32,004 nucleotides of DNA. Origin: Candidatus Margulisiibacteriota bacterium. Lineage in GTDB: Bacteria; Margulisbacteria; WOR-1; O2-12-FULL-45-9. The translations under genes and the position numbers were made by a program. Below are positions 16-19,835 of the stretch, in pieces. The stretch lies in contig JASEHX010000002.1 in the NCBI GenBank assembly GCA_030018645.1, forward strand, positions 6,272 to 38,275, given 5' to 3'. Each line of letters opens with the position of its first letter. The first letter of the stretch is position 1. Below the pieces are notes generated by a model. The model was not told where the DNA came from, searched no databases, and was given only the letters and a program-made list of their open reading frames with translations.

Positions 16-3000
16 ATGGGAAGAATTGTGAAAAAAAATAGTTATTTGCTCATTATTTTTGTTGTTGGATTGTTGTTGCCCTCTTATTTTACCGATATTT
101 CCTTTGCTGATGAATCCTACTCAACCTGGCTCAAGTCATATTTAAAAGGACAGGCCGATCAAGCCGCCGCTAATGTTAAAACCGTCCAGCCAATTTATAC
201 AATGGTTGGGGTCTGGATAGAGAAACCAGCGGGGGCATCACTTGAATCCGGCGAAGAAGTTAGATATGAGGCCTCGGACATGTTGGTTGCGGAAGAATAC
301 CGCAAAAAATACGTTAATCTTTGGGGGAGGAAGACCGCTTACAATTTTGAAGGGTCGGGTTGGACCGGTCAATCGGTTGAAGAATTTACTTATAATTACC
401 CCGAAGGCAGTCCTAATTATGGGGCCAGCTGCACTGCCGTATCTGACAAAAAGTGGGAAACGGTCCTGACTTTTCAACCAATTGATAAGAATACCCAATT
501 TAAGATTACCAAGAAAAACGATGAAGTAGCAAAACATAAGGAGCAAGGGAATGTCCTTTATGAAATCCACAAAAGTGACAGCGGTTCGATCCTTCTTCCC
601 AGTGAATTTAAATTAGGTGAGCCGGCCGTGGTTCGTTTTGAATCCGACCTTAATTCTAACCTGTATAGTTTTGGCCTGCGCGAATGGTTGAGCTGGGGCG
701 TGCACGCTGACGGCGACGCCGACAAAAATTACTATAATCTTCCGGAGCTGCGTCCCAATATCCAACGGATCTATAGTTTTTTATTTGATCCCCAAACCAT
801 AATTGACAAAGAAGGCAAGGCAAAATTGTATTACATACCAATCTTGACCGAAGGATCGACCAGCGAATGGGACAACGATGATATCAGTTCATTTACTTAT
901 CAATCCACTTTTGAACATCAGCCGTACTATGATTTGAAAAACCCAAAAGAGGAATATAATGCCTGCCTCTCCATCCCTTCGCCATCATCCTATCCAATTG
1001 TATTTGTGCAATATTCCCTGGGGAATCGCTCGCGTTTATGGAAGTGCACCCCGCTTGAACTGCCTGCCATAGAAGTTAGCGGCGATGGGGCCGGCGAAGT
1101 TTCTGCGCTCAAAGGCGAGCATGCCCGCTTGATTGACGAACTAAAAACTATTTTGCAAAAAGAACCGCCTGCCCCCAAAAAAGATGGTTCTTCCGAAGCT
1201 ATAGCGGCACAGCTGGCTGAATCCCGGAAAAAATTCGATGAGGAAATAATCAATAAAGACCAGGAAATTCGCAGCGTTGAGAAGAAATATTTTGACGCTT
1301 TATCAACCTGTTATGGGTCGGCGAATGAAGCTGGTTTAGCCGCCTTGCGCGAAGCCCTGCGCACGGAAGCTGTTTGCCTTAGCAAAGCCCGCACTGAAGC
1401 TATCGATGAAATGCGCGAGCAAAGTTTCCGCTTTATACCAAATTCTGCCTACTTCCGCTGCCGCCGCTATTACGAGGCCTATTTTAAAGACCTAAAACAA
1501 ATCCTCAATATTTGGAGCAATGTCAACCGGATGGAAATATTGCGGCTCGATATGCTAATTTCTGAACTCCTTAAAGGCCGCGCCGCACATGAGCCAGATT
1601 GCAGCGATATGGAATTGCTTTCTCTTCAAAACCAATTGAAGAATGTTTATGTTGACGAGGCCGTTATCCATTCAGCGCGTGAACAATGCATGGCAGAAGA
1701 CACGTTGGACGGCCGCGACAGTTACGGAGCAGCTTTGGCGGAAGCCCGCAAACAAAACCTGAAACAACCATGGCATAACGATTTCATAAAAAGACAGAGC
1801 CAGCGGGCAATTTACGGCACACAATATCTCATGGGAACCTTTGGGACTTTGTGGACCGTAGTGATTGACAGTATCAACCGTATCCGCAGCGCTCCTGCCA
1901 AGCTCTTAGGCGCCACTTCGTTTATCAGCGACATGCACTCTTCCACCGACAAATCAATCAATGACGTGCGCACCAAAATCGCCAATCGGTTGGCGGTTAT
2001 TGACGCGCTTTACTCGATGGGACCCGATGGATGCAAGTGGATGGGGGCTTTTGCACGGGGAGATGATTTGCTCCCCCCCGAAGGCATTAACGGTAAAATT
2101 GCGAGTGATATGGAAAACGACCGCACCTTTCACGAAGCCAGCGGCGGCGGCCTCATGCGCCTGGCCGCCTGTTATGAAATGGAAAAAGCGCCGCGGTTGG
2201 AATGGGAATACCGTATTGAGCTAAAACACGGCAAGCTATGCTGGGCCGACATGCGTAAAACATTGTATTTGCGCGAAGTCCGTAAGGAAAGCGGCGAAGA
2301 TCCTCTGCTGCGGCGGATGGTTGATCCTATGGGAGCAGTTAAAACCTCTGCCGCACACTACATTGGGAAGCAATACGACGGCGCCGAAGATTATTTGAGC
2401 GAGCGCAAAGGACAATTAATGGAAATGGAAGGACTGCTCCCATTGTTTAAAAAAATTAATTTCGATTTAGATATCGGCATTACTAAATATCCAACCATCA
2501 ACCAAACCCACGCCGCGCTTTGCCAGAATAATCCTGACTACATGAAATTCATGCAATCCTACCGTATGCTTTGGTCGCGCGAGCGCGAAATTGAGCTTTT
2601 TGCCGCCATGTCCACTGCCGAGACCAGTTCCGAGCGCGAAGAATACGAATTTAAACTCGATTTATTGAAGAATATTACCCAGCGCGAAGCCATTCCGGAT
2701 TTTATCCGCATTTTAAAACAACAGCTTTCTGATAAAATCGCGGCATCCGACTTTGACGGTGCTCTCATCCTTGCCCGGCAGATTGAAGATGTAGCGACCG
2801 TGGAAGCAAAAGGATTAACTAAATGGCTTTCCCAAGATTTTGCCTGGGAACAAGCCAAGGAAGTAGGCATCAACACGGCTGTATCAATTGGGAATCAGGG
2901 CTTATACGCGGCCTTTTTTGCCCGCTACCTTAGTCCGGCGGCAGTGCGCAACCAACCGGTTAGCTTTTCAAATATCAAAAAAGTTTTCTCAACCTGGAAG

Positions 3001-4998
3001 GGCTTTGGCGGGATGCTGGAGTTCACCTGGGGACAGGTTAATCCGTTTGCCAACTTGATGAAAACCATGGAGCCTAAAGAAATGGCTGTTGCCCTGGCAA
3101 AAACTACTCTCACCGGATTAGAACAAGTCACGCAGGAGCAAATTAAACAAAGCATTTTTATCGGTTATTTCGGGTTGGACGAAAAATACGCCGATTTTCT
3201 GGCGAATGTAGTAATTAATTTTGAGCAGATGCAAAGGGAGGATCCGACTTCTCTGACCAGTCGCACCGCGCGCAATCTCTTGCGCCAGCTTGATGCCTAC
3301 ACGCCCGATGTCATTAATCTTCCCGGCTGGCAAAGAATCATGAAAAGCCGCGTCAGGATGCGCGAATATTGGATGACTATGGATGCTTTGGCGCAACTGG
3401 AAAAGATAAAACTGCAAATGCAAGACGCGCGTAAAAGCAAAAAAGTGGACCTGCCAAAATTATCCGCGCTGGGCAGCAAATTTGGCAAAATCATGCTGAA
3501 GATCCGTTTAGCTATCAGTCCGCTGAACGCGGAAACAATCCGCTTAACCATGGATGATTATCAGCAAAAATTATCGGCGGCCAAAACTCCGATTGAAAGG
3601 GTTGCTGCTCACTCCGAACTGTTCCGGACCATGCCCTTTGCGGCATTGGTCAGCGCTAAAAAAGCAGGCAATTTGCCTAAAGATATGGAAGCGAAAATTG
3701 ACCTGGCCCGCCGAGACGTGCTAAGCACCATCCAAACCGAATTTCTCAAGGCCTATCCAGGAATGGCGCCTTATATTGAACGCTACATCTATACTGGATC
3801 GGGAGCGCGGGATACTTGGCCGGAATACAAGAAGATCAGCAGTGATCTTGATTTTACCCTTGTCCTGCGGGCAGGTGTGGACATAAAAATTAAAAATAAT
3901 ATTAAACAGGCCTTTGATGCTTTCTTTGAAAAAACCGCTAAGTTCCCGCCCGAAGAATTTGATGTGCATTCTTTTGTGGATGAGCGGCCTAACCTTGCCT
4001 GCCGCGGTGAAACTGCCGACCAATTAATTGCCCTGGTAAAAGACCCGTCCCAAGCGGGAAAATTATCGGCCGAAACACAGAGAAACATCGAAACCCTGCT
4101 GGCTGATTTGGGCGATCCTGAACGCTACTTGTCTACCGGGGCTGTGCGCTTTTTAAATTATTTAAACAAACTGGGCGGTCGGGTAAAAAAACCAGTTGGA
4201 GGAAAACTTGAAAATGATGATACTTATCAGGCCGAATTGTATAAGGATGTAAAATTTGAACCCTGGATGGGACTTGAGATAGTGCTGGACAACCTCAAGT
4301 TAATTGAGGCTCATGCGCCTAAAGACCGGCTGGAATATGCTGGTTCGGTCTCAAAGTACGCCCTGCGTATTCTTTTAGCCCGCATTATCCAATCTGATGC
4401 AGGGCTGGAAATGATCAATAAACTCGATATTGCTGAAATTGAAAAGAATTTGGAAACTACGGGCGGGATCCACGGCGAGTTTGTACGGATTGCCGAATCA
4501 TTGGGAGGGAAATTCAGCGATTCACAGCTAATGCTCTTTAGAGAATTAAACCTCAAAAAACAAGGCAAAAGCTGGGGAGAAGTATTAGCTGAACGCAACG
4601 GCGGAAAAATCATGGATAACGATGATCCGGCCCTAAATGCTGCCATTGAAAAACATGCGGCCGAAGTAGAGACCTTTATGCAGGAGTCGATCCGCGAAAC
4701 GGCGGTAACCCACGCAACCGAAATGAAAAAAATATCTGACGCGGTTCAGGAAACATCGGATCCATCTGCCCAAAAGGCCTTGCTTGATAAATACCGTGAA
4801 ATCCTGTATTCAACTGCAACCGTGTGGGATGCACTGCCTGAAAACCTGCGCAAAAATGTAATTGCCGCTTCGCCCGGCATGGATGAAGTTTATCGAGCAC
4901 TGGAAGATGTGCGGCAATTCTTCGAGCAAAAAAGAATTGACCTTATCCGCAATTATAATCCTTTCCAAAAATCGGGTGAGGTTCCCAAAGGAGATTAG
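16..4998 (+). CDS. Giant orphan envelope-targeted protein (1660 aa) with C-terminal nucleotidyltransferase-like region; no named family recognised
   Basis: Single uninterrupted 4983-nt ORF; no overlapping ORF is longer than about 120 aa. The N-terminus MGRIVKKNSYLLIIFVVGLLLPSYFTDISFA looks like a signal peptide (basic n-region, hydrophobic core, SFA site). aa ~35-350 are beta-rich and aa ~360-1240 mostly helical/coiled-coil-like. aa 1261-1323 carry a G-S...D-x-D...D motif. The frame is open back to base 1, so a start outside the window cannot be excluded. Confidence 0.7.
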   Translation: MGRIVKKNSYLLIIFVVGLLLPSYFTDISFADESYSTWLKSYLKGQADQAAANVKTVQPIYTMVGVWIEKPAGASLESGEEVRYEASDMLVAEEYRKKYVNLWGRKTAYNFEGSGWTGQSVEEFTYNYPEGSPNYGASCTAVSDKKWETVLTFQPIDKNTQFKITKKNDEVAKHKEQGNVLYEIHKSDSGSILLPSEFKLGEPAVVRFESDLNSNLYSFGLREWLSWGVHADGDADKNYYNLPELRPNIQRIYSFLFDPQTIIDKEGKAKLYYIPILTEGSTSEWDNDDISSFTYQSTFEHQPYYDLKNPKEEYNACLSIPSPSSYPIVFVQYSLGNRSRLWKCTPLELPAIEVSGDGAGEVSALKGEHARLIDELKTILQKEPPAPKKDGSSEAIAAQLAESRKKFDEEIINKDQEIRSVEKKYFDALSTCYGSANEAGLAALREALRTEAVCLSKARTEAIDEMREQSFRFIPNSAYFRCRRYYEAYFKDLKQILNIWSNVNRMEILRLDMLISELLKGRAAHEPDCSDMELLSLQNQLKNVYVDEAVIHSAREQCMAEDTLDGRDSYGAALAEARKQNLKQPWHNDFIKRQSQRAIYGTQYLMGTFGTLWTVVIDSINRIRSAPAKLLGATSFISDMHSSTDKSINDVRTKIANRLAVIDALYSMGPDGCKWMGAFARGDDLLPPEGINGKIASDMENDRTFHEASGGGLMRLAACYEMEKAPRLEWEYRIELKHGKLCWADMRKTLYLREVRKESGEDPLLRRMVDPMGAVKTSAAHYIGKQYDGAEDYLSERKGQLMEMEGLLPLFKKINFDLDIGITKYPTINQTHAALCQNNPDYMKFMQSYRMLWSREREIELFAAMSTAETSSEREEYEFKLDLLKNITQREAIPDFIRILKQQLSDKIAASDFDGALILARQIEDVATVEAKGLTKWLSQDFAWEQAKEVGINTAVSIGNQGLYAAFFARYLSPAAVRNQPVSFSNIKKVFSTWKGFGGMLEFTWGQVNPFANLMKTMEPKEMAVALAKTTLTGLEQVTQEQIKQSIFIGYFGLDEKYADFLANVVINFEQMQREDPTSLTSRTARNLLRQLDAYTPDVINLPGWQRIMKSRVRMREYWMTMDALAQLEKIKLQMQDARKSKKVDLPKLSALGSKFGKIMLKIRLAISPLNAETIRLTMDDYQQKLSAAKTPIERVAAHSELFRTMPFAALVSAKKAGNLPKDMEAKIDLARRDVLSTIQTEFLKAYPGMAPYIERYIYTGSGARDTWPEYKKISSDLDFTLVLRAGVDIKIKNNIKQAFDAFFEKTAKFPPEEFDVHSFVDERPNLACRGETADQLIALVKDPSQAGKLSAETQRNIETLLADLGDPERYLSTGAVRFLNYLNKLGGRVKKPVGGKLENDDTYQAELYKDVKFEPWMGLEIVLDNLKLIEAHAPKDRLEYAGSVSKYALRILLARIIQSDAGLEMINKLDIAEIEKNLETTGGIHGEFVRIAESLGGKFSDSQLMLFRELNLKKQGKSWGEVLAERNGGKIMDNDDPALNAAIEKHAAEVETFMQESIRETAVTHATEMKKISDAVQETSDPSAQKALLDKYREILYSTATVWDALPENLRKNVIAASPGMDEVYRALEDVRQFFEQKRIDLIRNYNPFQKSGEVPKGD

Positions 4999-5002: not shown

Positions 5003-5368
5003 ATGGCAAAAATTCTATTAGTTGAAGACCAGGCCAGCATGCGCTCTTTGTTTTCGCAGTTATTGCAGGCCAAGGGGCATACCGTGGTTTTAGCGGAGGA
5101 CGGCGAGGAAGCATGGGATATATGCACCACGGAAAAAGAAAACTTTGACTTGGTATTAACTGACGTCAATATGCCCCGCTTGGACGGTTATGAATTCCTA
5201 AAAAGGACGCGCCAGCATTTTCCCGGCGTAAAAGTAATTCTAATAACCGGCGCCAACGAAGAAGCAGCCGCAGTAATTTGCCAAGAATATAAAGCCGACG
5301 GGCTGATCACTAAACCCTTTGTAGTAGAAGAAGCAATTAGTTTAATTGAGAAAGTATTGCAGCCATGA
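5003..5368 (+). CDS. Stand-alone CheY-like response-regulator receiver (121 aa, no output domain)
   Basis: Start moved to ATG 5003 (AGGAG at 4989-4993); the 5' part of the track ORF overlaps the giant gene. Receiver signature: acidic pair in LLVEDQ, phospho-acceptor Asp in LVLTDVNMP, Thr in ILITG, Lys in ITKPF. Confidence 0.85.
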   Translation: MAKILLVEDQASMRSLFSQLLQAKGHTVVLAEDGEEAWDICTTEKENFDLVLTDVNMPRLDGYEFLKRTRQHFPGVKVILITGANEEAAAVICQEYKADGLITKPFVVEEAISLIEKVLQP

Positions 5369-5789: not shown

Positions 5790-7637
5790 ATGACCTCTAC
5801 CCTGAAGCCGATCCCAAGCCCGCCCGAAAATAATGCGAATAAAGCCAACTGGAAGAATATTTTTATTTATTTGCTGATTCTCCTGGCGGCGGTCGGAATT
5901 ATAGCGCCGCTTTTCCCGATTGAGCCCCCGTCCAAAGAAATCACCTTTTCAGAATTCTTGGACAAACTTGACAAAGGGCAAGTGAAAGAAGTTACTATTG
6001 CCGGCGATGTTGTGCGCGGTGTATATACGGATAAAAAGCATTTTAATGCCCGGGCCTTAAATTATCCCAACCTGGTTTCTACCCTGCGGCAAAAAAATGT
6101 GGCGATCAAAGTTGACACGCCGGTTGAAGCCAGTTGGTTGTGGAACCTGGCCGCCCAGCTCGTTTTTCCGGTGGCCTTTTTTGGTTTCTTGTGGTGGATG
6201 ATGGTGCGCCAGGCGCAGGGCGTCAACCAGCAGGCCATGGCATTCGGGAAAACCGGCGCCCGGCCGCTGACCGGGAAGGTTAATGTCACTTTTCAAGACG
6301 TAGCGGGGGTAGATGAGGCCAAAGAAGAATTACACGAAATAGTTGACTTCCTAAAAACTCCTGAAAAATTCCAAGCCCTGGGCGCTAAAATTCCCAAGGG
6401 TTTGCTTTTAATGGGTGCGCCAGGGACGGGAAAAACATTGTTAGCCCGCGCCATTGCGGGGGAGGCAGGGGTTCCTTTCTTTTCCATGTCGGGCTCTGAT
6501 TTTGTGGAGATGTTTGTAGGGGTGGGGGCGGCTCGCGTTCGCTCCTTATTTGACCAAGCCAAAAAACAAGCCCCTTCCATCATATTCATGGACGAAATTG
6601 ATGCAGTGGGGCGGCAAAGGGGGGCGGGGTTGGGCGGAGGGCACGACGAAAGAGAACAAACTTTAAACCAGCTTTTGGTGGAAATGGATGGCTTTGATCC
6701 CAAGGCCAACGTTATTGTGGTGGCGGCCACTAACCGGCCTGATATCTTAGATCCGGCTCTTTTGCGTCCCGGGCGTTTCGACCGCCGAATAGTGCTGGAT
6801 AAACCTGATTTAAAGGGGCGGGAAGGGATTCTCAAGATCCATGCCCGCGGCAAACCTTTGGCGTCCGACGTTGATTTAAATATGGTGGCCCGGCGCACGC
6901 CCGGCTTTACCGGAGCAGACCTAGAAAATGTTTTAAACGAAGCGGCCATTTTAGCCGCGCGGGTGGACAAAAAACAAGTCAACATGGAAGAGGTGGAAGA
7001 ATCCATTGACCGCGTTTTAGCCGGTCCCGAAAAGAAAAGCCGGGTCATATCGGACAAAGAAAAATCAATTGTTGCCCATCATGAAGTGGGACATGCCGTT
7101 CTTTCCAAAGTCCTGCCCCATGCCGATCCGGTGCATAAAATTTCAATCCTGCCGCGTGGTTTAGCATTGGGCTATACTCTCCAGCTTCCCGAACAGGACA
7201 AGCATTTGGTCAGCCGGGGGGAAGCCCTTGACCAAATTACGGTCATGCTGGGCGGGCGAGTGGCCGAAGAGCTCATTTTTGGCGAGATAACTTCGGGAGC
7301 GCAAAATGATTTGGAGCGCGCCACCGAACTGGCCAAAAAAATGGTCTGCGAATTTGGCATGAGCGAAATGGGCTTGCGCACTTTCGGCCGCAAAGACCGG
7401 CAGATATTTTTAGGCCGCGATATTGCCGAGATGAAAGATTACAGCGAAGAAACCGCGGACAAAATTGACATCGCTATGAAAACTATTATTGACCAATGTT
7501 ATATTCGGGCCAAGGAAGTTTTGACCATGAACCGTGAAAAGCTGGATACGATTGCAAAAAGCTTGATGGAAAAAGAAAGCTTGGAAAACCACGATTTGGA
7601 AGAAGCTTTAACCGGCCTTATCAGTCCCAATGTCTAA
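5790..7637 (+). CDS. ftsH: ATP-dependent zinc metalloprotease FtsH
   Basis: N-terminal TM segments, Walker A GAPGTGKT, Walker [33 protein letters not shown], zinc site HEVGHA. Confidence 0.95.
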
Positions 7638-8466
7638 ACTGGTTGAATGCGTTCCCAATTTTTCCGAAGGTGCGGATTTGGCGCTGGTGGATGAAATTGT
7701 CGCCGCGATCAAAACCGCCAAAGTCCTGAATGTCCACTCCGACCCCGACCATAACCGCTCGGTTGTAACTATTTTAGGTGAGCCCGATGCCGTAATGCTG
7801 GCGGCGTTTTCACTGACCGAGCGGGCGGTCCAGCTTTTAGATATTAATGAGCACGTTGGCGAACATCCTTTTATTGGAGTTATGGATGTTATCCCTTTTA
7901 TCCCGGTCAAAGAAATTTCTATCCCCGCAACAGTGGCCCTGGCAAAAGAATTGGCGGGTGAGCTTTGGAACAAATTGAAACTGCCGGTCTATTTTTACGG
8001 TGCGGCGGCGGTTAATCCCAATCGCAAAGAACTGCCCGCGGTTCGTCGCGGAAGCTATCCGCCGGATGTGGGGAGTGGTTTGCATCCCACGGCGGGGGCG
8101 GTGGCGGTAGGAGTAAGGGATTATCTGATTGCTTTTAATGTTAATCTAACTACCAATGATTTATCAATTGCCCAATCGATTGCCAAGAACATCCGCGAAA
8201 AGAGCGAGGGACTGCCGGGGGTGCGGGCGCTGGGAATTGACCTGAAAAGCCGCGGGATCACTCAAGTTTCGATCAATATCACCGACCACAAAACAACTTC
8301 GCTAAAACAAGTTTTTGATGAAGTAAAAAGATGGGCTAAAGAATATCAAGTAGGCATCATCGAATCCGAGCTGGTGGGGATGCTGCCGCAAGCGGCCGTT
8401 TTTCAAGGGATGAAAAATCTGTTAAAGTTAAGAAATTATTCAGATGAATATATATTATCAAACTAG
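7630..8466 (+). CDS. Glutamate formimidoyltransferase (FtcD N-terminal/transferase type)
   Basis: Hallmark N-terminus [14 protein letters not shown]; length (278 aa) fits stand-alone bacterial formimidoyltransferases. 8-nt overlap with the ftsH end. Confidence 0.8.
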   Translation: MSKLVECVPNFSEGADLALVDEIVAAIKTAKVLNVHSDPDHNRSVVTILGEPDAVMLAAFSLTERAVQLLDINEHVGEHPFIGVMDVIPFIPVKEISIPATVALAKELAGELWNKLKLPVYFYGAAAVNPNRKELPAVRRGSYPPDVGSGLHPTAGAVAVGVRDYLIAFNVNLTTNDLSIAQSIAKNIREKSEGLPGVRALGIDLKSRGITQVSINITDHKTTSLKQVFDEVKRWAKEYQVGIIESELVGMLPQAAVFQGMKNLLKLRNYSDEYILSN

Positions 8467-9797
8467 CTTCTTCGTCTGCTAGCGTGTTTTATTGCGTGTT
8501 CAAGCAAACACAGCTGATCTTCAGCCTGGGCTAATCCAACTGATAAGCGGATCATTCCACCGTCAATTCCCCAAAGTTCCTTTTCTGCTGGCGCTACGGT
8601 CGCATGGGTGCCAAGAAATGGCATTTCAATTAACGAACTTATTCCTCCCAAACTTACAGCATGTTTTATAACTCCCCCGCCATAGCGCGCAACGTAATTT
8701 ATGATTCTTTCGGCACGCGCTGCGCGGATAGCTTCTGTTTTTCCAGCCGGCGTAAAAGCAACCATGAATCCAGGGGCAAAAGTGTTATCCCACGAAGTAA
8801 GCAATCTTTGTGCAATTGAGAAATAAGAAGACGAAGCTAGCCCTGGGTAGTTAACTCTGCTGATATCAGGATTACCTGCAAGAGCAGCGGCAATAGTTTG
8901 GGCATTTCCAGTCATTCCACTAAAGCGATGATACAAGGTTGGCAAGCCCCGCGTAAGAAGAGTATGCACTTGTTCTGGCGCAGGAACTCCCCCAGTGTCC
9001 TTTCTAAACAAGAATAAACTTGGCCATTGGGCTTTAGGAACAATGGCAACCCCGGCCATTTCTTGGGTGAATCCGCCAAGGGCCTTGGTACAGGAATGGA
9101 CCACCATATCCGCACCATGGAGCAAAGGATTATCGCCAGCCGGGGTTTGGAAGGTATTATCAACTATGATCACAATATTTGGTTTTTTCTCTTTGGCCAA
9201 GCGAGAAATAGTTTCTAAATCGTAAACTCTAAGGTCAGGGTTGGTTACGGTTTCAAAATAGAGAACTTTGGTTTTGGGGTTCATTGCCCTAATGGCTTCT
9301 TCGGGATTGGATAAATCTAGGATATGGACATTATAGCCCCGTTTTTTTGCCAAGCCAGAGAAATAATTGTCAGTACAGCCATACAAAGGCTTTGAGGCAG
9401 CAACAATATCTCCTGGATCTAGCTGAAATTCAAGAACGGAATTAATGGCACGCATGCCGTCGCTAAATGCCAGCGCCCAATGTGTTGCTGGGGTAACCCC
9501 TTCTGCTATAACCATTGCCCAATTGAAGGCGACCTCAACTTCAGATCCAATTCTGCGATAGATATGACAAAGGCCGGCAACTTCATCCATGGTGGTTGGG
9601 TTAAATTCCAGGAGAGATTGAAATGCTCTGGCCATATCTTTAGCTGAAGCAGCTTTAACCGTGGTTGCAACTGGTATTGGCCAAACGGCATCAACATATC
9701 GTGCACCTTTGGGGATAGGCGGCGAAGCTAACATCGCCATAGCGGTACTGCGATGAACGTCATAAGGGGTCATCCTTCTTATAGTTGGTGTTAGCAT
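8463..9797 (-). CDS. Cys/Met-metabolism PLP-dependent enzyme family (gamma-lyase/sulfhydrylase-like, divergent)
   Basis: PLP-Lys context HSCTKALGG, AVSLGGISSLIEMP, C-terminal IRLSVGLAQAED. Start set to ATG 9797 (GGAG 8 nt upstream) rather than the 9884 ORF start. Confidence 0.75.
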   Translation of the reverse strand: MLTPTIRRMTPYDVHRSTAMAMLASPPIPKGARYVDAVWPIPVATTVKAASAKDMARAFQSLLEFNPTTMDEVAGLCHIYRRIGSEVEVAFNWAMVIAEGVTPATHWALAFSDGMRAINSVLEFQLDPGDIVAASKPLYGCTDNYFSGLAKKRGYNVHILDLSNPEEAIRAMNPKTKVLYFETVTNPDLRVYDLETISRLAKEKKPNIVIIVDNTFQTPAGDNPLLHGADMVVHSCTKALGGFTQEMAGVAIVPKAQWPSLFLFRKDTGGVPAPEQVHTLLTRGLPTLYHRFSGMTGNAQTIAAALAGNPDISRVNYPGLASSSYFSIAQRLLTSWDNTFAPGFMVAFTPAGKTEAIRAARAERIINYVARYGGGVIKHAVSLGGISSLIEMPFLGTHATVAPAEKELWGIDGGMIRLSVGLAQAEDQLCLLEHAIKHASRRRS

Positions 9798-9898
9798 GGT
9801 TCTTTTCTCCAGACATCTCACCTGGCTTCGCGAGCCTTTGTTTGCACTCAAGAATTCTTCGGCAGGGAGCGTAATAAATTTCACTCACTTTTATAAAT

Positions 9899-9908
9899 AT
9901 AGTATAAT
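9899..9908 (+). promoter_or_regulatory. -10 element (ATAGTATAAT) directly upstream of def; candidate leaderless transcript
   Basis: TATAAT at 9903-9908. The def ATG at 9915 is only 6 nt downstream and no Shine-Dalgarno lies between them. Confidence 0.35.
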
Positions 9909-9914
9909 CATGTT

Positions 9915-10406
9915 ATGCTCCGCAAAATTATTAGATTCCCTCATCCGGTCTTGAAGAAAAAAGCCAAAGCGGTCAAAAGGGTTACCACGGAAATTGTGCG
10001 GCTAATTGACGATATGATCGAGACCATGCAGAAAGCGCCGGGGGTGGGATTAGCGGCGCCGCAGGTGGGCGAATCAATTCGCGTCATCGTCGCAGATATC
10101 GGCACAGGAGCCATTGCCGTAATCAATCCCAAAATAATCAAGAAAAGCGGCAAGCAGTGCCTTAATGAAGGATGCCTATCACTGCCCGGAGTAGAAGCCC
10201 CGGTGGAAAGAGCTGCCCATGTCATTGTAACCGGCCTTGACCGCACCGGCAAAAAAGCAACCATCGAAGCCAAAGAATTATTGGCCACTATTTTACAGCA
10301 CGAAGTTGACCACCTGGAAGGTTTGGTGCTGGTTGACCGCGTCAGCGACCCCAGTTTAATCAAGCATGTTCCCCCTGCCAGCGAAAAGAAGGAAGAACTA
10401 ATCTAA
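9915..10406 (+). CDS. def: Peptide deformylase
   Basis: All three Def motifs present: GVGLAAPQVG, EGCLSLPG, QHEVDHLEG. Confidence 0.95.
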   Translation: MLRKIIRFPHPVLKKKAKAVKRVTTEIVRLIDDMIETMQKAPGVGLAAPQVGESIRVIVADIGTGAIAVINPKIIKKSGKQCLNEGCLSLPGVEAPVERAAHVIVTGLDRTGKKATIEAKELLATILQHEVDHLEGLVLVDRVSDPSLIKHVPPASEKKEELI

Positions 10407-11350
10407 TGCGCCTTATTTTCATGGGAACGCCGGTCCCGGCGGCAAAAATATTAGAAACCCTCATTGCTTCACAACAGCATGAAATTGTTGGTGTGATCAC
10501 CCAGCCCGATCGGCCCAAGGGAAGGGGATTAAAGCTGGCATTCTCACCGGTCAAAGAAACAGCTTTACACCACCAGCTAAAACTTGAACAACCCGATAAA
10601 TTAAAAGATGGAAAGATGGTTAGATGGATAGATGGTTTGAAGCCAGATGTGATTGTCGTAGTGGCGTATGGAAAAATATTACCGCGGGAAATATTAGATA
10701 TCCCTAAATATGGCTGTATCAATGTCCATGCTTCACTTTTGCCCAAATATCGAGGGGCAGCACCGGTCCAATGGGCTTTGCTGAACGGCGAAAAAGAAAC
10801 CGGCATTACCATTATGCGTTTAGATGAAGGAATGGATACCGGCGATATTATTCTGCGGGGAAAAATAATTATTGACGATGACATTAATGCCGAAAAATTA
10901 CTGGAGAAATTATTTGATCTTGGCGCGCCGCTGCTGCTTTCTGCCCTGCAGCAAATTGAAAAAGGAACTGCCGAGTATCAAAAGCAAAATGACGGCCAGG
11001 TTACTTTTGCTCCTAGTTTAACCAAGGAAAGCGGTGAGATTGACTGGCGCAAATCAGCGCCAGAAATTCACAACCGCATCCGTGCGCTGGTCCCCTGGCC
11101 GTCCGCGCACACATATTATCAAAAGAAAGCACTAAAGATTTTAGCGTCGAAAGTAAATGGTCCCGTTTTAGAGAAAGGCGGGCATCCCGGAGAAATTATC
11201 CAAATAGTTAAGGGAATCGGCTTTGTGATAGCGTGCGGACAAGGGCATCTTTTGGTTACCGAAGTCCAGCCCGAAGGCGGCAAAGCCATGTCCGCCGCGG
11301 CTTTCAGCTATGGTCACGCCGTGAAAAGCGGCGAAACCCTTCCCAGTTAG
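10406..11350 (+). CDS. fmt: Methionyl-tRNA formyltransferase
   Basis: HASLLPKYRGAAPVQWAL and MDTGDII motifs plus a C-terminal Fmt domain. Classic def-fmt pair with TAATG overlap. Confidence 0.9.
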   Translation: MRLIFMGTPVPAAKILETLIASQQHEIVGVITQPDRPKGRGLKLAFSPVKETALHHQLKLEQPDKLKDGKMVRWIDGLKPDVIVVVAYGKILPREILDIPKYGCINVHASLLPKYRGAAPVQWALLNGEKETGITIMRLDEGMDTGDIILRGKIIIDDDINAEKLLEKLFDLGAPLLLSALQQIEKGTAEYQKQNDGQVTFAPSLTKESGEIDWRKSAPEIHNRIRALVPWPSAHTYYQKKALKILASKVNGPVLEKGGHPGEIIQIVKGIGFVIACGQGHLLVTEVQPEGGKAMSAAAFSYGHAVKSGETLPS

Positions 11351-11365
11351 GGCAAAAATCAGCTA

Positions 11366-11395
11366 TTGACACCACCATGGATGGTGTGGTAAATT
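11366..11395 (+). promoter_or_regulatory. Candidate sigma70-type promoter of the nrdR-nrdD-nrdD operon, with an embedded palindrome
   Basis: TTGACA 11366-11371 and TGgTAAATT (extended -10) ending at 11395. The inverted repeat CACCAT-gg-ATGGTG (11373-11386) fills the spacer. Confidence 0.4.
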
Positions 11396-11413
11396 TCTAC
11401 TTACCCTAAATCT

Positions 11414-11917
11414 ATGAAATGCCCATTCTGCCAATACGAAGAAGATAAAGTGCTTGAATCCCGCGAAATAGAAGAAGGTGGGGCGGTTCGTCGGAGAAGG
11501 GAATGCCTTTCCTGCCGCGGCCGGTTTACCTCATACGAGCGGGTAGAAGAAAAGCCGCTGATGGTTATTAAACGCGATGGCCGCCGCGAAGCCTTTAACC
11601 GCGAAAAAATTTTAGGCGGGATCCACCGCGCCTGCGAAAAAAGGCCGGTGCCCACGGCCATGATCGAGCAAATGGTAGATGAAATTGAAAAAGAACTGCA
11701 CCGCAAAGAAGGACGCGAAGTGACCGCTGCTACCATTGGCCAAATGGTAATGGATAAACTGCAGGACACCGATAAAATTGCTTATATCCGTTTTGCTTCG
11801 GTGTACCGCAAGTTTGAAGATGTTTCCGACTTCATTAAAGAAGTAGCAGAAATCAGTCCCGCACTTTCTTATACAAATGAACCAGCTTTAAAAAGTGCGG
11901 GGAGGAGGGTAGAATAA
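11414..11917 (+). CDS. nrdR: Transcriptional repressor NrdR (zinc ribbon + ATP-cone)
   Basis: MKCPFCQ...CLSCRGRFTSYE zinc ribbon followed by an ATP-cone (VIKRDGRREAFNREKIL). Confidence 0.9.
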   Translation: MKCPFCQYEEDKVLESREIEEGGAVRRRRECLSCRGRFTSYERVEEKPLMVIKRDGRREAFNREKILGGIHRACEKRPVPTAMIEQMVDEIEKELHRKEGREVTAATIGQMVMDKLQDTDKIAYIRFASVYRKFEDVSDFIKEVAEISPALSYTNEPALKSAGRRVE

Positions 11918-14013
11918 TGGTTAAGGAATTATTGGTGGATGAAATGAAAAGTATAAACGATGCGACCGACATGGCCCTGTTTGTGCGGACATCTTCCGAA
12001 GATATTGTCGGCTGGAACCGCGAAAAAATTGTCGCCGCCCTGATCCGTGAAACCAGCGTTGACCCCGAAATTGCCGAAGTCATCGGCCAAGAAGTGGAAG
12101 AACAGATCATGCGCCTCAACCTGCGCACGGTTACCGCTCCCCTAGTGCGCGAACTGGTGGACGTAAAACTGCTGGAGCACGGCTTGGAAGAAGCCCGCCG
12201 CCGCCACACCCGCCTCGGCTTCCCGCTTTATGATGTTAAAGAAATTATCTTCAGCCAAAACAAGGAAAACGCCAATGTGCCGCACGGTCCCGAAGCTACC
12301 AATTTAACGCTGTCAGAAGGGATCAAAAAAGAATTCGCCCTCCTGCACGTTTTTACCCAGGATATTGCCGATGCCCACATGGTGGGCGACATCCATTTGC
12401 ACGATTTGGGTTTTATCGATCGGCCTTACTGCAGCGGACAGTCAGTAGAGTATGTCAAAAAGTTTGGGCTTGATCTTCCCAATGCTTTATCCAATGCCCG
12501 GCCGGCTAAACACCCTGAAGTTCTGTTGGCGCAAATGGTCAAGTTCTCGGCGGCACTGCAAGGCGTCTTTGCCGGAGCGATTGGCTGGGACGCGGTTAAT
12601 ATTTTCTTTGCTCCGTTTCTAGTTGGTTTATCGGATAAAGAAATTTATCAACTTGCCCAGATGATGATTTATGAATACAGCCAGCAAGCGGTGGCGCGCG
12701 GCGGCCAGGCCATTTTCTCGGATATTAATTTATACTGGGAAGTGCCCAAACATTTTGAAAATGTGCCGGCCATCGGCCCGGGCGGGGAGTATACCGGAAA
12801 AACTTATGCTGACTACATTAAAGAATCTCAAAAATTTGTCTGGGCGCTGTTTGACGTCTACCGCGAAGGGGACGGGGCGGGAAGACCCTTCTTTTTTCCC
12901 AAACCCTTGGTGCATATGACCGAAAAATTCTTCAAAACTCCGGGACATGAAGAATTCTTACTGCATATCTCTGAAGTGGCAACCGAAATGGGCAACACTT
13001 ATTATGTCTTTGACCGCGGCGATACCGCCAAAATTTCCGAGTGCTGCCGCCTGTCATTTAAACTGGAACAATCCGACCTTGACGATGCCAAGGAGCCCTG
13101 GCGGATGCGCTATTCCGCCCTCCAAAATGTTACTATCAACCTGCCGCGCATGGCTTACAAGGCCAAAGGATCGGACGATAAATTGTTTGAACTAATCGGC
13201 GCCAACTTGGAAATGGCCGCCCAAGCCCACATTCAGAAAAAAGCTTTTATTACCGAAATCTTAGCCAAAGGTCAGAGAGGGCCGCTTTCCATGCTGGCTA
13301 TGCAGCGCGACGGGCAATCGTATCTTAGGATGTTTAGGGTAAGTTATTTGATGGGCATTTTGGGCCTCAACGAACTGGTGCAGGCCCACAAGGGAGTGGA
13401 ACTGCATGCCAATGACGCGGCGCTAAAATTTGGCCTCAAAGTTATCTCGTTCATGAAGTTAAAATGCGAAGAATTATCGCGGCGCTATAACATGCACTTT
13501 GTCCTCGAACAAACCCCGGCCGAATCCACCGCCTATCGTTTTGCCAAGTTAGATATGGAACATTACCCCGAGCAAACCAGCCGCGTGGTAAAGGGACATA
13601 AAGAACAGAAGGAGCTGTATTACACCAATTCAACTTATTTTAATGTTTCCCATCCCATGAACCCGGCCGACCGGGTTAAAATGGAAGGCATTTTCCACCC
13701 CCTAATTGATGCTGGAGCGCTGACCCATGTTTGGCTGGGCGAATCAAAACCCAGCCCGGCTTCCATCGCCAATTTTGTGGTAAAAACTTTCCAGCATACC
13801 CAAAACGCGCAGATTGCTTTTTCGCCCGAGTTTACTTCCTGCAATGCCTGCGGTAAAATTGCCCGCGGCCTGCACGAAAAATGCTCCTATTGCCAATCGG
13901 AAAACATTGAAGGCATTACGCGCATTACCGGCTATTTTTCCAAGATTGCCGGCTGGAACAAAGGCAAAATCGGCGAACTAAAAGACCGTTATCGGGTGAG
14001 GGGAACAATATAG
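11917..14013 (+). CDS. nrdD: Anaerobic (class III) ribonucleoside-triphosphate reductase, paralog 1
   Basis: N-terminal ATP-cone, loop KISECCRLSF (C376-C377), C-terminal Zn site CNAC...CSYC and glycyl-radical motif RITGYFS. TAATG overlap with nrdR. Confidence 0.9.
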   Translation: MVKELLVDEMKSINDATDMALFVRTSSEDIVGWNREKIVAALIRETSVDPEIAEVIGQEVEEQIMRLNLRTVTAPLVRELVDVKLLEHGLEEARRRHTRLGFPLYDVKEIIFSQNKENANVPHGPEATNLTLSEGIKKEFALLHVFTQDIADAHMVGDIHLHDLGFIDRPYCSGQSVEYVKKFGLDLPNALSNARPAKHPEVLLAQMVKFSAALQGVFAGAIGWDAVNIFFAPFLVGLSDKEIYQLAQMMIYEYSQQAVARGGQAIFSDINLYWEVPKHFENVPAIGPGGEYTGKTYADYIKESQKFVWALFDVYREGDGAGRPFFFPKPLVHMTEKFFKTPGHEEFLLHISEVATEMGNTYYVFDRGDTAKISECCRLSFKLEQSDLDDAKEPWRMRYSALQNVTINLPRMAYKAKGSDDKLFELIGANLEMAAQAHIQKKAFITEILAKGQRGPLSMLAMQRDGQSYLRMFRVSYLMGILGLNELVQAHKGVELHANDAALKFGLKVISFMKLKCEELSRRYNMHFVLEQTPAESTAYRFAKLDMEHYPEQTSRVVKGHKEQKELYYTNSTYFNVSHPMNPADRVKMEGIFHPLIDAGALTHVWLGESKPSPASIANFVVKTFQHTQNAQIAFSPEFTSCNACGKIARGLHEKCSYCQSENIEGITRITGYFSKIAGWNKGKIGELKDRYRVRGTI

Positions 14014-16115
14014 TGAAGACGGTAACCAGTAACCAGTTGCCGGTAACCAGTATCCCGCCGGCGGAAGATACGACGGACCTTATGGTTTTCGTCCGCACGT
14101 CAACGGATGATATTGTAGCGTGGGATAAAGATAAAATTGTCGCGGCGCTAGTGAAGGAAACCGGGCTTAGCCCCGAGATTGGCTCAATCATTGCCATAGA
14201 AGTCGAAAAACAGCTCCGCGCTATGTCGGTTAAAAACATTACTTCTCCTCTCATCCGCGAACTGGTAGACGTTAAATTGCTGGAATACGGCCTGGAAGAT
14301 GCCCGCCGCCGCCACACCCGCCTGGGGGTCCCAGTCTATGATGTCAGAAAAATCCTTTTCCACAAGAATAAGGAAAACGCCAACACGCCGCACTCGCCGG
14401 AAGCCACCAACTTTACCTTGGCTGAAAATATCAAAAAAGAATTTGCTTTGCTCAATGTCTTTTCCCTGCCGGTGGCCGATGCCCATATGCGCGGCGATAT
14501 CCATTTGCATGATTTGGGTTTTGTTGACCGCCCCTATTGCAGCGGGCAATCAGTTGAATACCTTAAAAAATACGGCTTAGATCTGCCGGGCGCCAAGGGC
14601 TGCGCCAAACCGGCGGAAGATGCCGATGAACTCATTTCCCATATTGTAAAATTTTCGGTAGCTTTGCACGGTTTCTTCGCGGGAGCGATTGGCTGGGATG
14701 CGGTTAATATGTTTATGGCCCCTTATCTGGAAGGGTACGGTTCTGGCCACGTCAAAAAACTGGCTCACAAATTAATTTCCGAGTTTGCCACCGCGGCGGC
14801 GGCGCACGGCGGCCAGGGATTATTTTCTGATTTAAACCTATACTGGGAAATTCCTAAGCATTTTGAAAATGTCCCGGCCATTGGGCGGGGAGGGGTTTAT
14901 ACCGGTAAAGCTTATGCCGATTACATTAATGAATCCCAGCTTTTTGCCAAAGCCATGTTTGAGGTCTACAAAGAAGGGGATGGCGTGGGCAGGCCGTTCT
15001 TTTTCCCAAAACCTTTGGTGCACATGACGGAAAGGTTCTTCAATACCGCCGGCCACGAAGAATTCTTAAATCTTATCTCGGCCGTGGCGGCGGAAATGGG
15101 CAACACCTATTTTGTCTTTGACCGAGGAGAAACCGCCAAGATCTCCGAATGCTGCCGTTTGTCTTTTAAGCTCGATTATTCGGATTTGCAGGATGCCAAA
15201 GAGCCCTGGCGCATGCGCTACTCGGCCATCCAAAATGTTACGCTCAATTTACCGCGCGCTGCCTACCTGGCCCAAAGAAGCGACGAAAAATTATTTAAGA
15301 CCTTAGAGGAAATGCTAAACATTGCCGCCCGCGCGCACCGCGAGAAGAGAAAGTTTATTGAAGACCTGTTAAACGAAGGTCCCGATGGCCCGCTTTCGCT
15401 CTTAGCCACCGAGCGGGAGGGGGATTGCTATTTGCGCCTGCATCGCGTAACCCACCTGATTGGCGTGTTGGGCCTTAACGAGCTGGTGGAGTTTCATATG
15501 GGAAAACAGCTGCACGAAGCGCAGGATGCCCTGCGCTTTGGCCTGAAGGTCATTTCTTTTCTGAAATTAAAATGCGAAGAGCTGTCAGAAAAATACGACC
15601 TGCATTTTGTCCTGGAACAAACCCCGGCCGAATCCACTGCTTACCGTTTTGCCAAACTAGATATGGAGCATTTTCCCCAGCCAGCCCAGCAAGTGATCAA
15701 AGGCGATTTGGTTTCCGGCGAAATTTATTACACCAATTCGACTTACTTTAATGTGGGCTATGCCGTAAACCCGATTGATCGCGTCCAATTAGAAGGCCTG
15801 TTCCACCCGCTGATCGATGCCGGGGCGCTGACCCATGTTTGGCTGGGCGAATCAAAACCCGATCCCGCTTCCATTGCCAATTTTGTGATCAAAACTTTTA
15901 AAAATACCCAAAACAGCCAAATTGCTTTTTCGCCCGAGTTTACCGCCTGCCAAAACTGCGGGAAAACCGCCCGCGGACTGCACGATCAATGTCCATATTG
16001 TTCATCAGAAAAGATCGAAGGGATCACCCGTATTACCGGCTACTTTTCCCGGATCCCGGGCTGGAATAAAGGTAAAATCGGCGAATTAAAAAGCCGCTTT
16101 CGAAGTGAATTATAA
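14013..16115 (+). CDS. nrdD: Anaerobic (class III) ribonucleoside-triphosphate reductase, paralog 2
   Basis: Collinear with paralog 1 over the full length, roughly two-thirds identical by eye. Same ATP-cone, ECCRLSF (C380-C381), CQNC...CPYC and RITGYFS. GTG start overlaps the paralog-1 stop (TAGTG). Confidence 0.9.
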   Translation: MKTVTSNQLPVTSIPPAEDTTDLMVFVRTSTDDIVAWDKDKIVAALVKETGLSPEIGSIIAIEVEKQLRAMSVKNITSPLIRELVDVKLLEYGLEDARRRHTRLGVPVYDVRKILFHKNKENANTPHSPEATNFTLAENIKKEFALLNVFSLPVADAHMRGDIHLHDLGFVDRPYCSGQSVEYLKKYGLDLPGAKGCAKPAEDADELISHIVKFSVALHGFFAGAIGWDAVNMFMAPYLEGYGSGHVKKLAHKLISEFATAAAAHGGQGLFSDLNLYWEIPKHFENVPAIGRGGVYTGKAYADYINESQLFAKAMFEVYKEGDGVGRPFFFPKPLVHMTERFFNTAGHEEFLNLISAVAAEMGNTYFVFDRGETAKISECCRLSFKLDYSDLQDAKEPWRMRYSAIQNVTLNLPRAAYLAQRSDEKLFKTLEEMLNIAARAHREKRKFIEDLLNEGPDGPLSLLATEREGDCYLRLHRVTHLIGVLGLNELVEFHMGKQLHEAQDALRFGLKVISFLKLKCEELSEKYDLHFVLEQTPAESTAYRFAKLDMEHFPQPAQQVIKGDLVSGEIYYTNSTYFNVGYAVNPIDRVQLEGLFHPLIDAGALTHVWLGESKPDPASIANFVIKTFKNTQNSQIAFSPEFTACQNCGKTARGLHDQCPYCSSEKIEGITRITGYFSRIPGWNKGKIGELKSRFRSEL

Positions 16116-16130: not shown

Positions 16131-16454
16131 ATGGCACTAGACAATCTGGCGGTAAAAGTTTTTGGGAAACCAGGGTGTGAGTTTTGTAAAACCACGGTTA
16201 AAAAATTTGAAACTTTTATGCAGCGTTGGGAAGTGGACACAGAAAAAGTCCAGCTCCAGTTTTTTGACATGGAAACGGTTGATGGGTTGGCGGAAGGGGC
16301 ATTTTACAGCGTTACCAAGATTCCTTCAACCGTGATTGAAAAGGAAGGCAGTATCGCCGCCCGCTGGGACGGGAAAGTGCCGCTGTCCAGCGAATTTAAG
16401 GATTATTTTGGGGGAGTTGCGGATTCTGGGGAAATCACGGATAGTATTAATTAG
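16131..16454 (+). CDS. Thioredoxin-fold small redoxin (NrdH/glutaredoxin-like), 107 aa
   Basis: VKVFGKPGCEFCKTT CxxC motif at the first beta-alpha junction, putative cis-Pro in TKIPST. Strong SD GAGGAGG upstream; immediately follows nrdD paralog 2. Confidence 0.65.
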   Translation: MALDNLAVKVFGKPGCEFCKTTVKKFETFMQRWEVDTEKVQLQFFDMETVDGLAEGAFYSVTKIPSTVIEKEGSIAARWDGKVPLSSEFKDYFGGVADSGEITDSIN

Positions 16455-18843: not shown

Positions 18844-18883
18844 ACTTATAGCTTAACAAAATCTAGCCGTAGATTCAAACTTA

Positions 18884-18892
18884 TGCTAAAAT
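18884..18892 (+). promoter_or_regulatory. Extended -10 (TGcTAAAAT) 6 nt upstream of the DUF1858-like start; candidate leaderless transcript
   Basis: TAAAAT at 18887-18892, ATG at 18899, no SD between them. Confidence 0.3.
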
Positions 18893-18898
18893 AACCGT

Positions 18899-19102
18899 AT
18901 GCATCCTATCACCAAAGATATGACCATTGCGGAAGCGCTGAAGTTAAAGCCCGCCATTGCCCAGGTGCTAATGGCAAAAGGTATGCATTGTTTGGGCTGT
19001 GTGGTAGCACAAGGAGAAACTATTGAGCAGGCGGCCGAAGTGCATGGGTTGGCGGCTGATGAGTTGCTGGCTGAATTAAATGCTGAATTAAATAAGGAGT
19101 GA
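18899..19102 (+). CDS. DUF1858-like small redox-disulfide protein (hybrid-cluster-protein-associated type)
   Basis: 67 aa. ITKDMTIAEALKLKP...GMHCLGC...ETIEQAAEVHG matches the DUF1858 pattern as I remember it. Confidence 0.6.
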   Translation: MHPITKDMTIAEALKLKPAIAQVLMAKGMHCLGCVVAQGETIEQAAEVHGLAADELLAELNAELNKE

Positions 19103-19105
19103 TAG

Positions 19106-19339
19106 ATGGCAATAGTTAAAGTATATTCAACCCCCGCCTGTGTCTATTGTGTGATGGCTAAAAAATTCCTAGCGGAGAACAATATCCCTTTTGAGGAAAT
19201 TGATGTTTCCCTTAGCCAATCGGCGGCGCAGGAAATGATCAACAAATCAGGCCAGATGGGCGTGCCGGTAATTGACATTGATGGTAAAATATTTGTGGGG
19301 TTTGATCGGGCGGGCATCAAAAAAGCCCTGGGGTTATAA
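19106..19339 (+). CDS. Glutaredoxin-like protein (NrdH/YruB type), 77 aa
   Basis: VKVYSTPACVYCVMAKKFL CxxC motif, GVPVIDIDGKIFVGFD C-terminal motif. Confidence 0.75.
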   Translation: MAIVKVYSTPACVYCVMAKKFLAENNIPFEEIDVSLSQSAAQEMINKSGQMGVPVIDIDGKIFVGFDRAGIKKALGL

Positions 19340-19355
19340 AAGAGGAGACAATTTC

Positions 19356-19532
19356 ATGACCATTTCAGTTGATCAAGCGTTATGCTCGGGCTGCGGCATT
19401 TGCATTGACCTTTGCCCGGAAATCTTCACTTGGGGGGCGGATGGGAAAGCGCAAGCGGTAAAAGATGTTTGCGAAATCCACAACCCCGAAGAAGTGGCTG
19501 ACCAATGTCCCATGGACGCGATTGATATTTAA
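19356..19532 (+). CDS. Single-cluster [4Fe-4S] ferredoxin (Thermotoga/Pyrococcus type), 58 aa
   Basis: CSGCGIC...CP cluster ligands plus two extra Cys placed like the disulfide pair of that family. Start set to ATG 19356 (GAGGAG upstream); the longer track ORF overlaps the glutaredoxin gene. Confidence 0.8.
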   Translation: MTISVDQALCSGCGICIDLCPEIFTWGADGKAQAVKDVCEIHNPEEVADQCPMDAIDI

Positions 19533-19547
19533 GAAGGGAGAATAAGC

Positions 19548-19733: not shown

Positions 19734-19764
19734 GTTTGCCCAGCAGTAACAATAAAAGCGCGGC
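19723..19764. repeat. Direct repeat copy A: orphan duplicate of the pyrB 3' end
   Basis: 39/42 identical to 21017-21058. Its minus-strand translation AALLLLLLGKPTA* is identical to the real pyrB C-terminus. Confidence 0.9.
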
Positions 19765-19831: not shown

Positions 19832-19835
19832 ACAT

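Follow-up and report, generated by a model that had tools for sequence, protein, structure and literature searches.

Nucleotidyltransferases of the Pol-beta superfamily are recognized by a common signature (Holm and Sander, 1995, via PMC12409994). SidM/DrrA, a substrate of type IV secretion (PMC12409994; PMC8605245), is a secreted effector built from several domains, one of which is a nucleotidyltransferase (PMC12409994). GlnE and GlnD belong to the same superfamily as SidM/DrrA, have the same catalytic motif G-Xn-D-X-D and are cytoplasmic. The aminoglycoside nucleotidyltransferases of the ANT(9), ANT(3'') and ANT(4') type (6sxj, 6p06; AadA) are likewise cytoplasmic and stand alone, with a Pol-beta lobe followed by a helical lobe in about 250 amino acids (aa). 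The catalytic fold is also found in the CD-NTase CdnC (6p80) and the Hailong protein HalB (9dbh), which are short and cytoplasmic and, like the small nucleotidyltransferase-fold toxin enzymes of the MenT/AbiEii type, are encoded in defence or toxin-antitoxin operons. Here we describe a large protein encoded at positions 16-4998 (+ strand) of a 32,004-nucleotide stretch of DNA (the window) from a metagenome-assembled genome (MAG) of Candidatus (Ca.) Margulisbacteria. The protein carries a predicted nucleotidyltransferase at its C-terminus and a predicted export signal at its N-terminus. It is overall best explained, with a probability that we put at roughly 55%, as a Sec-exported modular nucleotidyl-transferring protein whose layout recalls secreted effectors or toxins.

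The C-terminal module of the large protein is very probably a nucleotidyltransferase. An AlphaFold2 model of aa 1180-1660 was calculated from an alignment of 42 sequences, which outside the clade of the query are 17-30% identical to it, and has a mean predicted local distance difference test score (pLDDT) of 92.4 and a predicted template modelling score (pTM) of 0.91. In the numbering of the model, to which 1179 is added to obtain protein positions, helix 43-67, strand 75-81, helix 82-85, strand 99-105, helix 111-129 and strand 138-144 follow one another, after which come more helices, a beta-hairpin at 210-221 and an all-helical lobe that continues to residue 466. The predicted catalytic lobe (aa 1222-1400; 3679-4215, + strand) reads alpha1-beta1-[GS]-alpha2-beta2-alpha3-beta3 plus beta-hairpin, and the helical second lobe spans aa 1401-1645 (4216-4950, + strand). 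All elements that characterize the Pol-beta superfamily can be located in the model: the hG[GS] motif as G1261-S1262 (3796-3801, + strand) at the end of beta1 and start of alpha2, where strand 75-81 passes into helix 82-85; the [DE]h[DE]h motif on beta2 as D1277-L-D1279-F in strand 99-105, with D1277-L-D1279 (3844-3852, + strand) as the putative metal-binding DxD; and the third carboxylate on beta3 as D1322 (3979-3981, + strand) in strand 138-144, within the alternating alpha-beta-alpha-beta-alpha-beta topology. The motif definitions are those of the Aravind-Koonin and Kuchta classifications of nucleotidyltransferases. G1261, D1277, D1279 and R1451 are invariant in the 42 sequences, and D1229, R1232, Y1271, S1276, T1281, D1322, R1370, Y1371, K1447 and K1515 are conserved in at least 90% of them; K1515 is invariant in a smaller alignment of 24 sequences. 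R1370 and Y1371 lie in the catalytic lobe; K1447, R1451 and K1515 of the helical lobe are probable binding residues for the triphosphate or the acceptor. Fold topology of the predicted structure and catalytic residues together make membership in the superfamily well supported, and the initial annotation, which had taken the C-terminal part as merely helical or coiled-coil-like, missed a Pol-beta-type core with an intact catalytic set in the last ~440 aa. We regard the module as a separate, new family of this superfamily; membership in one of the described families (GlnE/GlnD/DrrA, ANT/KNTase, CD-NTase) is not supported.

Comparison with solved structures places the module nearest to the ANT type. 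Foldseek searches of the C-terminal model against PDB and BFVD returned no statistically significant match. Among PDB matches that span most of the target, the top probabilities were obtained for AAD(9)/ANT(9) (6sxj, 0.92), HalB (0.75) and ANT(4') (0.44), with CdnC, OAS1 and poly(A) polymerase ranked lower, so that the ANT type provides the solved folds matched with the highest probability and CdnC and HalB are weak matches. Short matches of ~55 residues to tautomerase-family proteins reached probabilities of 0.7-0.9, and the top of the BFVD list is held by several viral nucleotidyltransferase models at 0.5-0.7. In the model, the family module has a Pol-beta lobe followed by a helical lobe, as the ANT enzymes do. 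It differs from them in its size of ~440 aa, in a helical lobe that is much larger and in its place at the end of a 1660-aa protein that is predicted to be exported. Pairwise hhalign comparison of a profile of the catalytic core with AadA, GlnD and GlnE gave E-values of 0.0034, 0.0083 and 0.048, respectively. In all three cases the best local alignment was the catalytic motif, at which two unrelated control proteins gave no alignment. The AadA query matches annotated ANT(3'') genes at 100% identity, and GlnE and GlnD are those of E. coli. In AadA, beta1, G-S, S-D-x-D, beta2 and alpha3 are in register with the family profile at an hhalign probability of ~10%.

The N-terminus of the large protein has the properties of a Sec-type signal peptide (aa 1-31; 16-108, + strand), as judged from hydropathy and family comparison. 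An n-region with a charge of +3 (MGRIVKKNSY) precedes an 11-residue h-region (LLIIFVVGLLL) with a Kyte-Doolittle hydropathy (KD) of 3.1 over 12 residues, and the predicted signal peptidase I site SFA|DES conforms to the -3/-1 rule, with small residues at both positions (S-F-A|D). All features expected of a Sec export signal are thus present, and we infer cleavage near residue 31. The 19 residues at aa 11-29 (KD 1.97) form the sole segment of transmembrane grade in the protein. A charged n-region combined with a hydrophobic core was found in 23 of 27 full-length family members. The remaining four are P0004, which is borderline (KD 1.78), P0012 and P0049, which have no net positive n-region, and P0053, which has no hydrophobic N-terminus; the starts of P0012, P0049 and P0053 may be truncated or mis-called, and the sequence of P0049 begins with V. 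On these sequence features, export of the large protein is likely.

Behind the signal peptide lies a lineage-specific domain (aa 32-343; 109-1044, + strand) that is homologous only to the corresponding part of a 78% identical relative, P0002. Its fraction of helix formers is 0.36 compared to 0.49-0.51 elsewhere in the protein, a composition that suggests a non-helical, beta/turn-rich fold. The low value agrees with the ~330-aa beta-rich region described in the initial annotation, for which composition is the sole support; the signal-peptide-like N-terminus noted there is borne out by the charge, hydropathy and cleavage-site features and by their retention in the family. In other clades unrelated sequence occupies the same position: PD40 beta-propeller repeats, a duplicated Verrucomicrobia-type domain or a long coiled-coil-like stretch. 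The region behind the duplicated domain reads like an Ig-like fold and has no domain match, and the charged Ala/Glu-rich N-terminal stretch of some members can be read as a putative coiled coil. The variable N-terminal domain most likely confers targeting or anchoring specificity.

The conserved core begins at a junction motif, C-T-P-L-E-L-P-A-I (aa 344-352; 1045-1071, + strand), which follows the family pattern P-L-x-L-[VI]-x-P and leads into a non-repetitive central module of ~870 aa (aa 353-1221; 1072-3678, + strand). G711, P771 and P1010 are invariant in this module, and conserved motifs are DRxFxExxxGGLxR (702-715), NPDY (839-842), NPF (1009-1011) and GxDxxYADFLA (1053-1063); a single TPR-like DFDGAL is found at aa 912-917. 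The central module is probably all-helical, as suggested by a low-confidence model and by composition. Structure prediction of the core (aa 455-1654) from a 3-sequence alignment gave an unusable model (pLDDT 40.8), so no reliable model was obtained for the N-terminal domain and the central module. Two conserved semi-hydrophobic stretches are present in the central module, one at aa 599-617 (1810-1866, + strand; KD 0.98) and one scored at aa 950-968 (KD 0.93) and annotated at aa 954-972 (2875-2931, + strand). With family-wide mean hydropathies of 0.88 and 0.83, they are the most hydrophobic conserved positions of the core, which bears out the two weakly hydrophobic stretches pointed out initially. 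A transmembrane reading of them was rejected: internal maxima lie at ~1.0, below transmembrane grade, and an internal 19-mer with KD of at least 1.6 occurs in only 1 of 26 homologues. Given the low hydropathy here and in the other 25 relatives, the two stretches are best described as predicted semi-hydrophobic helices and not membrane spans, and no internal transmembrane-grade helix that would mark an integral membrane protein was found in the large protein.

The family is rare and spans at least four phyla; the members that could be placed come from Margulisbacteria, Saganbacteria, Hydrogenedentota and Verrucomicrobia (Spartobacteria). Only three matches came out of a word-indexed search that covered 5.8 billion proteins: the large protein itself, the 78% relative (1666 aa) and a 2090-aa protein with 24% identity over residues 402-1649. 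Repeating this search with alignments of 3 and 24 sequences gave no further relatives. With a profile of residues 455-1654, an exhaustive HMMER search that covered 1.84 billion cluster representatives (50% identity) identified 69 clusters at E<=1e-3, of which 55 reach E<=1e-10 and 31 reach E<=1e-30. The protein is therefore not the orphan it had been taken for. Full-length matches are mostly 1600-2250 aa long, every source names them 'hypothetical protein', and one cluster representative comes from a Ca. Hydrogenedentota MAG. Contig scans added a Ca. Saganbacteria homologue (locus L003) that is 53% identical in the core and two homologues from Spartobacteria, and a metagenome scan with a 9-sequence alignment added five loci. 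Alignments of 24 and 42 members show a common layout of signal peptide, variable N-terminal domain, ~870-aa module and ~440-aa module. Four distant members of 2027-2250 aa (P0042, P0048, P0049 and P0055) carry an additional 280-500 aa after the nucleotidyltransferase module. This extension contains the motif GDFDRKxxNxxxxxDGxxxGIDF, which resembles a kinase catalytic loop (Pfam PI3_PI4_kinase, E 0.11, below the Pfam threshold), and in P0049 also a RelA/SpoT-like region (E 5e-4, below the Pfam threshold). Weak as these matches are, such putative enzyme-like C-terminal additions would fit a multi-enzyme effector scaffold. A further distant member, P0019, lies at 6575-11485 of locus L012 (JADHED010000271.1, 305-21217) amid a run of very long open reading frames (ORFs), among them a neighbour of ~1900 aa with a signal peptide and the Ig-like domains FlgD_ig and Big_13; the high guanine-cytosine content (GC) of this locus makes some of its ORF calls uncertain.

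The gene itself runs without interruption over 1660 codons from an ATG at position 16 to a TAG at 4996-4998 and is by far the longest ORF of the window. It corresponds at 100% identity to the NCBI 'hypothetical protein' QME05_00265 (P0001, 1656 aa), whose gene model starts four codons downstream of the ATG at 16. The signal peptide begins at this upstream ATG, and bases 1-15 contain no in-frame stop. GC along the gene is 0.43-0.49, similar to the remaining window. Neither the whole protein nor its three separate segments matched anything in Pfam, NCBIfam, PADLOC or the PDB sequences. Searches of the PDB sequences with phmmer and with the family profile returned noise only (ClpB coiled coil, apolipoprotein E, designed TPR), the best nucleotidyltransferase entry for the profile being 9xbd_E at E 0.73. 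Self-BLAST of the protein and profile self-comparison of the central module showed no internal repeats or cryptic duplication. The gene is thus real and intact, and the initial annotation, which had described it as the largest gene of the window, without recognisable repeats and impossible to place in a family from its sequence, holds in these respects.

In the reading that we prefer, the N-terminal signal peptide would take the protein across the cytoplasmic membrane via Sec and would then be cleaved. The variable ~310-aa N-terminal domain would supply targeting or anchoring specificity, and the ~870-aa helical module would sit between this domain and the enzyme. The C-terminal module would catalyze the Mg2+-dependent transfer of a nucleoside monophosphate from a nucleoside triphosphate (NTP) to a hydroxyl group, carried by a protein, a nucleic acid or a small molecule, with D1277, D1279 and D1322 as ligands of two metal ions, and would act outside the cytoplasm of the producer, on or in another cell. 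A similar order of modules is found in Pseudomonas exotoxin A, a single-chain AB toxin with a Sec signal, a binding domain, a helical middle and a C-terminal enzyme that needs a cytoplasmic cofactor. The position of the binding domain is the variable one in our family, and exotoxin A is an ADP-ribosyltransferase whereas the enzyme predicted here is a nucleotidyltransferase. SidM/DrrA, to our knowledge, has no Sec signal peptide. The idea of nucleotidyl transfer as a toxic or signalling activity carries over from CdnC, HalB and the MenT/AbiEii-type enzymes, although the large protein differs from these in its predicted export and its location among housekeeping genes. The bacterial periplasm is generally considered to contain little or no NTP; this scarcity, the order of signal, variable domain, helical module and enzyme, and the added enzyme-like domains in distant members favour a secreted effector or toxin, a role that we propose by analogy and only tentatively. 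A further-reaching reading, unlikely and at present speculative, makes the family a new class of nucleotidyltransferase effectors or toxins that uncultivated, mostly free-living bacteria (Margulisbacteria, Saganbacteria, Hydrogenedentota, Verrucomicrobia and others) would secrete as single chains in a Sec-dependent manner. In such a class the helical module with its two semi-hydrophobic helices would deliver the enzyme into a target cell, the N-terminal targeting domain would be swappable, and some lineages would add kinase-like and RelA/SpoT-like warheads.

Several results weigh against this reading. The best Foldseek match of the C-terminal model is a designed helical protein (E 0.075), and the best nucleotidyltransferase, of the ANT type, reaches E 0.12 and a template modelling (TM) score of 0.45 by target, with no Pfam match to ANT models. 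The hhalign probabilities are low, at 1-10%, and searches with hidden Markov models (HMMs) against PDB sequences and E. coli GlnE and GlnD gave no significant match to a nucleotidyltransferase. The signal peptides were scored by simple charge, hydropathy and -3,-1 rules, and aa 32-1221 have no reliable structure. Comparison with Pfam, NCBIfam, PADLOC, PDB sequences and PDB folds revealed no homology to a toxin: there is no PADLOC match and no known toxin-trafficking or secretion domain, and the RHS, FHA or PT-HINT-like trafficking domains of polymorphic toxins did not appear in the domain searches. A conserved enzyme end combined with a variable N-terminus is moreover the reverse of classical polymorphic toxins. 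The loci compared contain no recurring small downstream immunity-like gene, and the GC of the large gene equals that of the adjoining housekeeping genes, which makes it unlike a recently acquired island.

The initial annotation had counted the protein among envelope proteins, a reading that is unproven: the sequence features predict export, and the two hydrophobic stretches do not qualify as membrane spans. The main alternative to our preferred reading, with which the conserved export signal is also compatible, is a resident enzyme that stays in the periplasm or at the outer membrane of the producer. Its targets would be envelope parts of the same cell; a glycan, lipid or protein might, for instance, receive a nucleotidyl or phospho-alcohol group, and the helical module would serve as spacer or scaffold. 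The conserved semi-hydrophobic helices, the housekeeping surroundings with matching GC and the lack of an immunity-like partner agree with such a role, as does the Saganbacteria locus (L003, JAPLLA010000036), in which an OprD-family porin gene (L003:13579-15516) starts on the stop codon of the homologue. However, the porin link is confined to this one locus, the periplasm is not generally known as a source of NTP, and the exchange of the N-terminal domain from clade to clade points to changing external targets more than to a conserved substrate in the envelope, leaving a resident enzyme rather doubtful. In the same locus kdpD/kdpE lie directly upstream of the homologue, and in the window a receiver-domain gene directly follows the large gene. 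This would suit a nucleotide-binding sensor or pseudo-enzyme with a mainly structural or signalling function, for example a surface receptor linked to a two-component system. Against this stands the catalytic set: the three carboxylates and the G-S are invariant or nearly so among members at 17-30% identity, a conservation not expected of a pseudo-enzyme. As response-regulator adjacency is also missing in loci L002 and L013, we consider a sensor improbable.

If the N-terminal segment were an anchor instead of a cleaved signal, the protein could be a membrane-anchored cytoplasmic protein adenylyl- or uridylyl-transferase of the GlnE/GlnD type. The local motif of E. coli GlnE and GlnD, E-L-x3-S-D-[IL]-D, resembles E-Y-x3-S-D-L-D of the large protein, the joint pattern being E-[LY]-x3-S-D-[LI]-D, and the best local hhalign matches fall on these motifs. 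A kinship suspected from the motif was nonetheless rejected: Pfam gave no GlnE, GlnD or DUF294 match, no HMM match to the catalytic domains of E. coli GlnE and GlnD was found, the hhalign probability is 1-5%, and neither GlnE nor DrrA is among the best 50 Foldseek matches of the C-terminal model. Together with the charged n-region and the A-x-A-type site, which predict that the bulk of the protein is exported and not kept in the cytoplasm where GlnE and GlnD reside, this makes the GlnE/GlnD type very improbable. The origin of the sequence from a MAG contig raises the question of an assembly chimera, which the initial annotation had already named, or of a pseudogene or spurious ORF. The probability of such an artefact is negligible because unbroken, colinear full-length homologues occur in independent assemblies and phyla, including P0002 (78% identity, 100% coverage), the L003 homologue (1636 aa) and P0004 (1643 aa), and conservation extends from end to end with a C-terminal third that folds with high confidence.

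If the prediction holds, the module represents a nucleotidyltransferase family outside every domain library. It would also be unusually placed, at the end of a large exported protein and thus where NTP donors are normally scarce, which raises the question of what is nucleotidylated, and where. Of particular interest are an apparently active predicted nucleotidyltransferase outside the cytoplasm and a large conserved, probably helical module. In aa 1180-1660 there is a defined enzyme module whose model is of high confidence and whose catalytic residues are named, and the protein may be a secreted factor through which the poorly known Margulisbacteria interact. MAGs commonly encode exported proteins of several domains that are uncharacterised, and if the enzyme is inactive or the protein a simple envelope component, this would merely be another uncharacterised MAG family. 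New and rare are the family and its architecture, while the enzyme superfamily is already well known. At 1660 aa the protein is large, yet far below the 'giant' proteins treated in recent work (bioRxiv 10.1101/2023.11.21.568195).

The large gene is closely followed by a gene for a single-domain CheY-like receiver of 121 aa (5003-5368, + strand), which starts 4 nt past the stop of the large gene and has its Shine-Dalgarno sequence, AAAGGAG, inside the 3' end of the large gene. Genes for MazG, FtsH and formiminotransferase follow, closely packed, and no convincing terminator separates the large gene from this downstream string; in the window the CheY-like gene is probably co-transcribed with the large gene. 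The tightly packed + strand gene string of the initial annotation is therefore real, but it is not conserved in relatives. All-against-all BLAST of the neighbours at six loci and five further ones revealed nothing common across clades, and the CheY-like gene is not next to the homologues in L002 and L013. The gene of the 78% relative has other neighbours, an unrelated one of 461 aa before it and a convergent HAD hydrolase gene after it. In L003 a dual-specificity phosphatase gene comes after the porin gene; of the Pfam models, that of the polymorphic toxin system DSP-PTPase matches it best (E 7e-11). The Hydrogenedentota homologue shows translational coupling to the gene before it, which is unrelated and encodes 613 aa. 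Verrucomicrobia-type members have a partner gene directly before them (L001:7725-9995, L004:5295-7607, L005:5313-7613 and L009:255-1943), the stop of which overlaps the start of the large gene in L009. The partners are 560-800 aa long and conserved in their C-terminal ~130 residues, which match no Pfam family; TPR repeats are found in the L001 copy only. A receiver-domain gene adjoins the homologue in two of four loci checked in the clade of the query, which may be a coincidence.

The remaining window contains housekeeping genes, among others those for FtsH, Def, Fmt, NrdR, two NrdD, LDH/MDH, OTCase, QueD, GltX, SppA, RsmH and a GH94 phosphorylase, and the window as a whole has no Rfam family and no tRNA gene. 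At 11414-16115, nrdR (11414-11917) stands ahead of a tandem pair of full-length paralogues of the anaerobic ribonucleotide reductase NrdD with 698 and 700 aa (11917-14013 and 14013-16115). The second gene of the pair opens on the stop codon of its predecessor, and a small thioredoxin-like gene at 16131-16454 comes after the pair. With ORFs shorter than 80 aa disregarded, 18844-19882 looks like a 1-kb gene gap; the interval contains four small ORFs that by eye read as redox-type genes, one DUF1858-like (67 aa), one glutaredoxin/NrdH-like (77 aa) and two small 4Fe-4S ferredoxin-like. Two ATPase genes, at 19883-21004 and 23860-25215 (ATPase_2/AAA_14 and AAA_14-DUF4143), flank the genes for OTCase, QueD and GltX in a part of the window where the local GC is lower (0.39-0.44).

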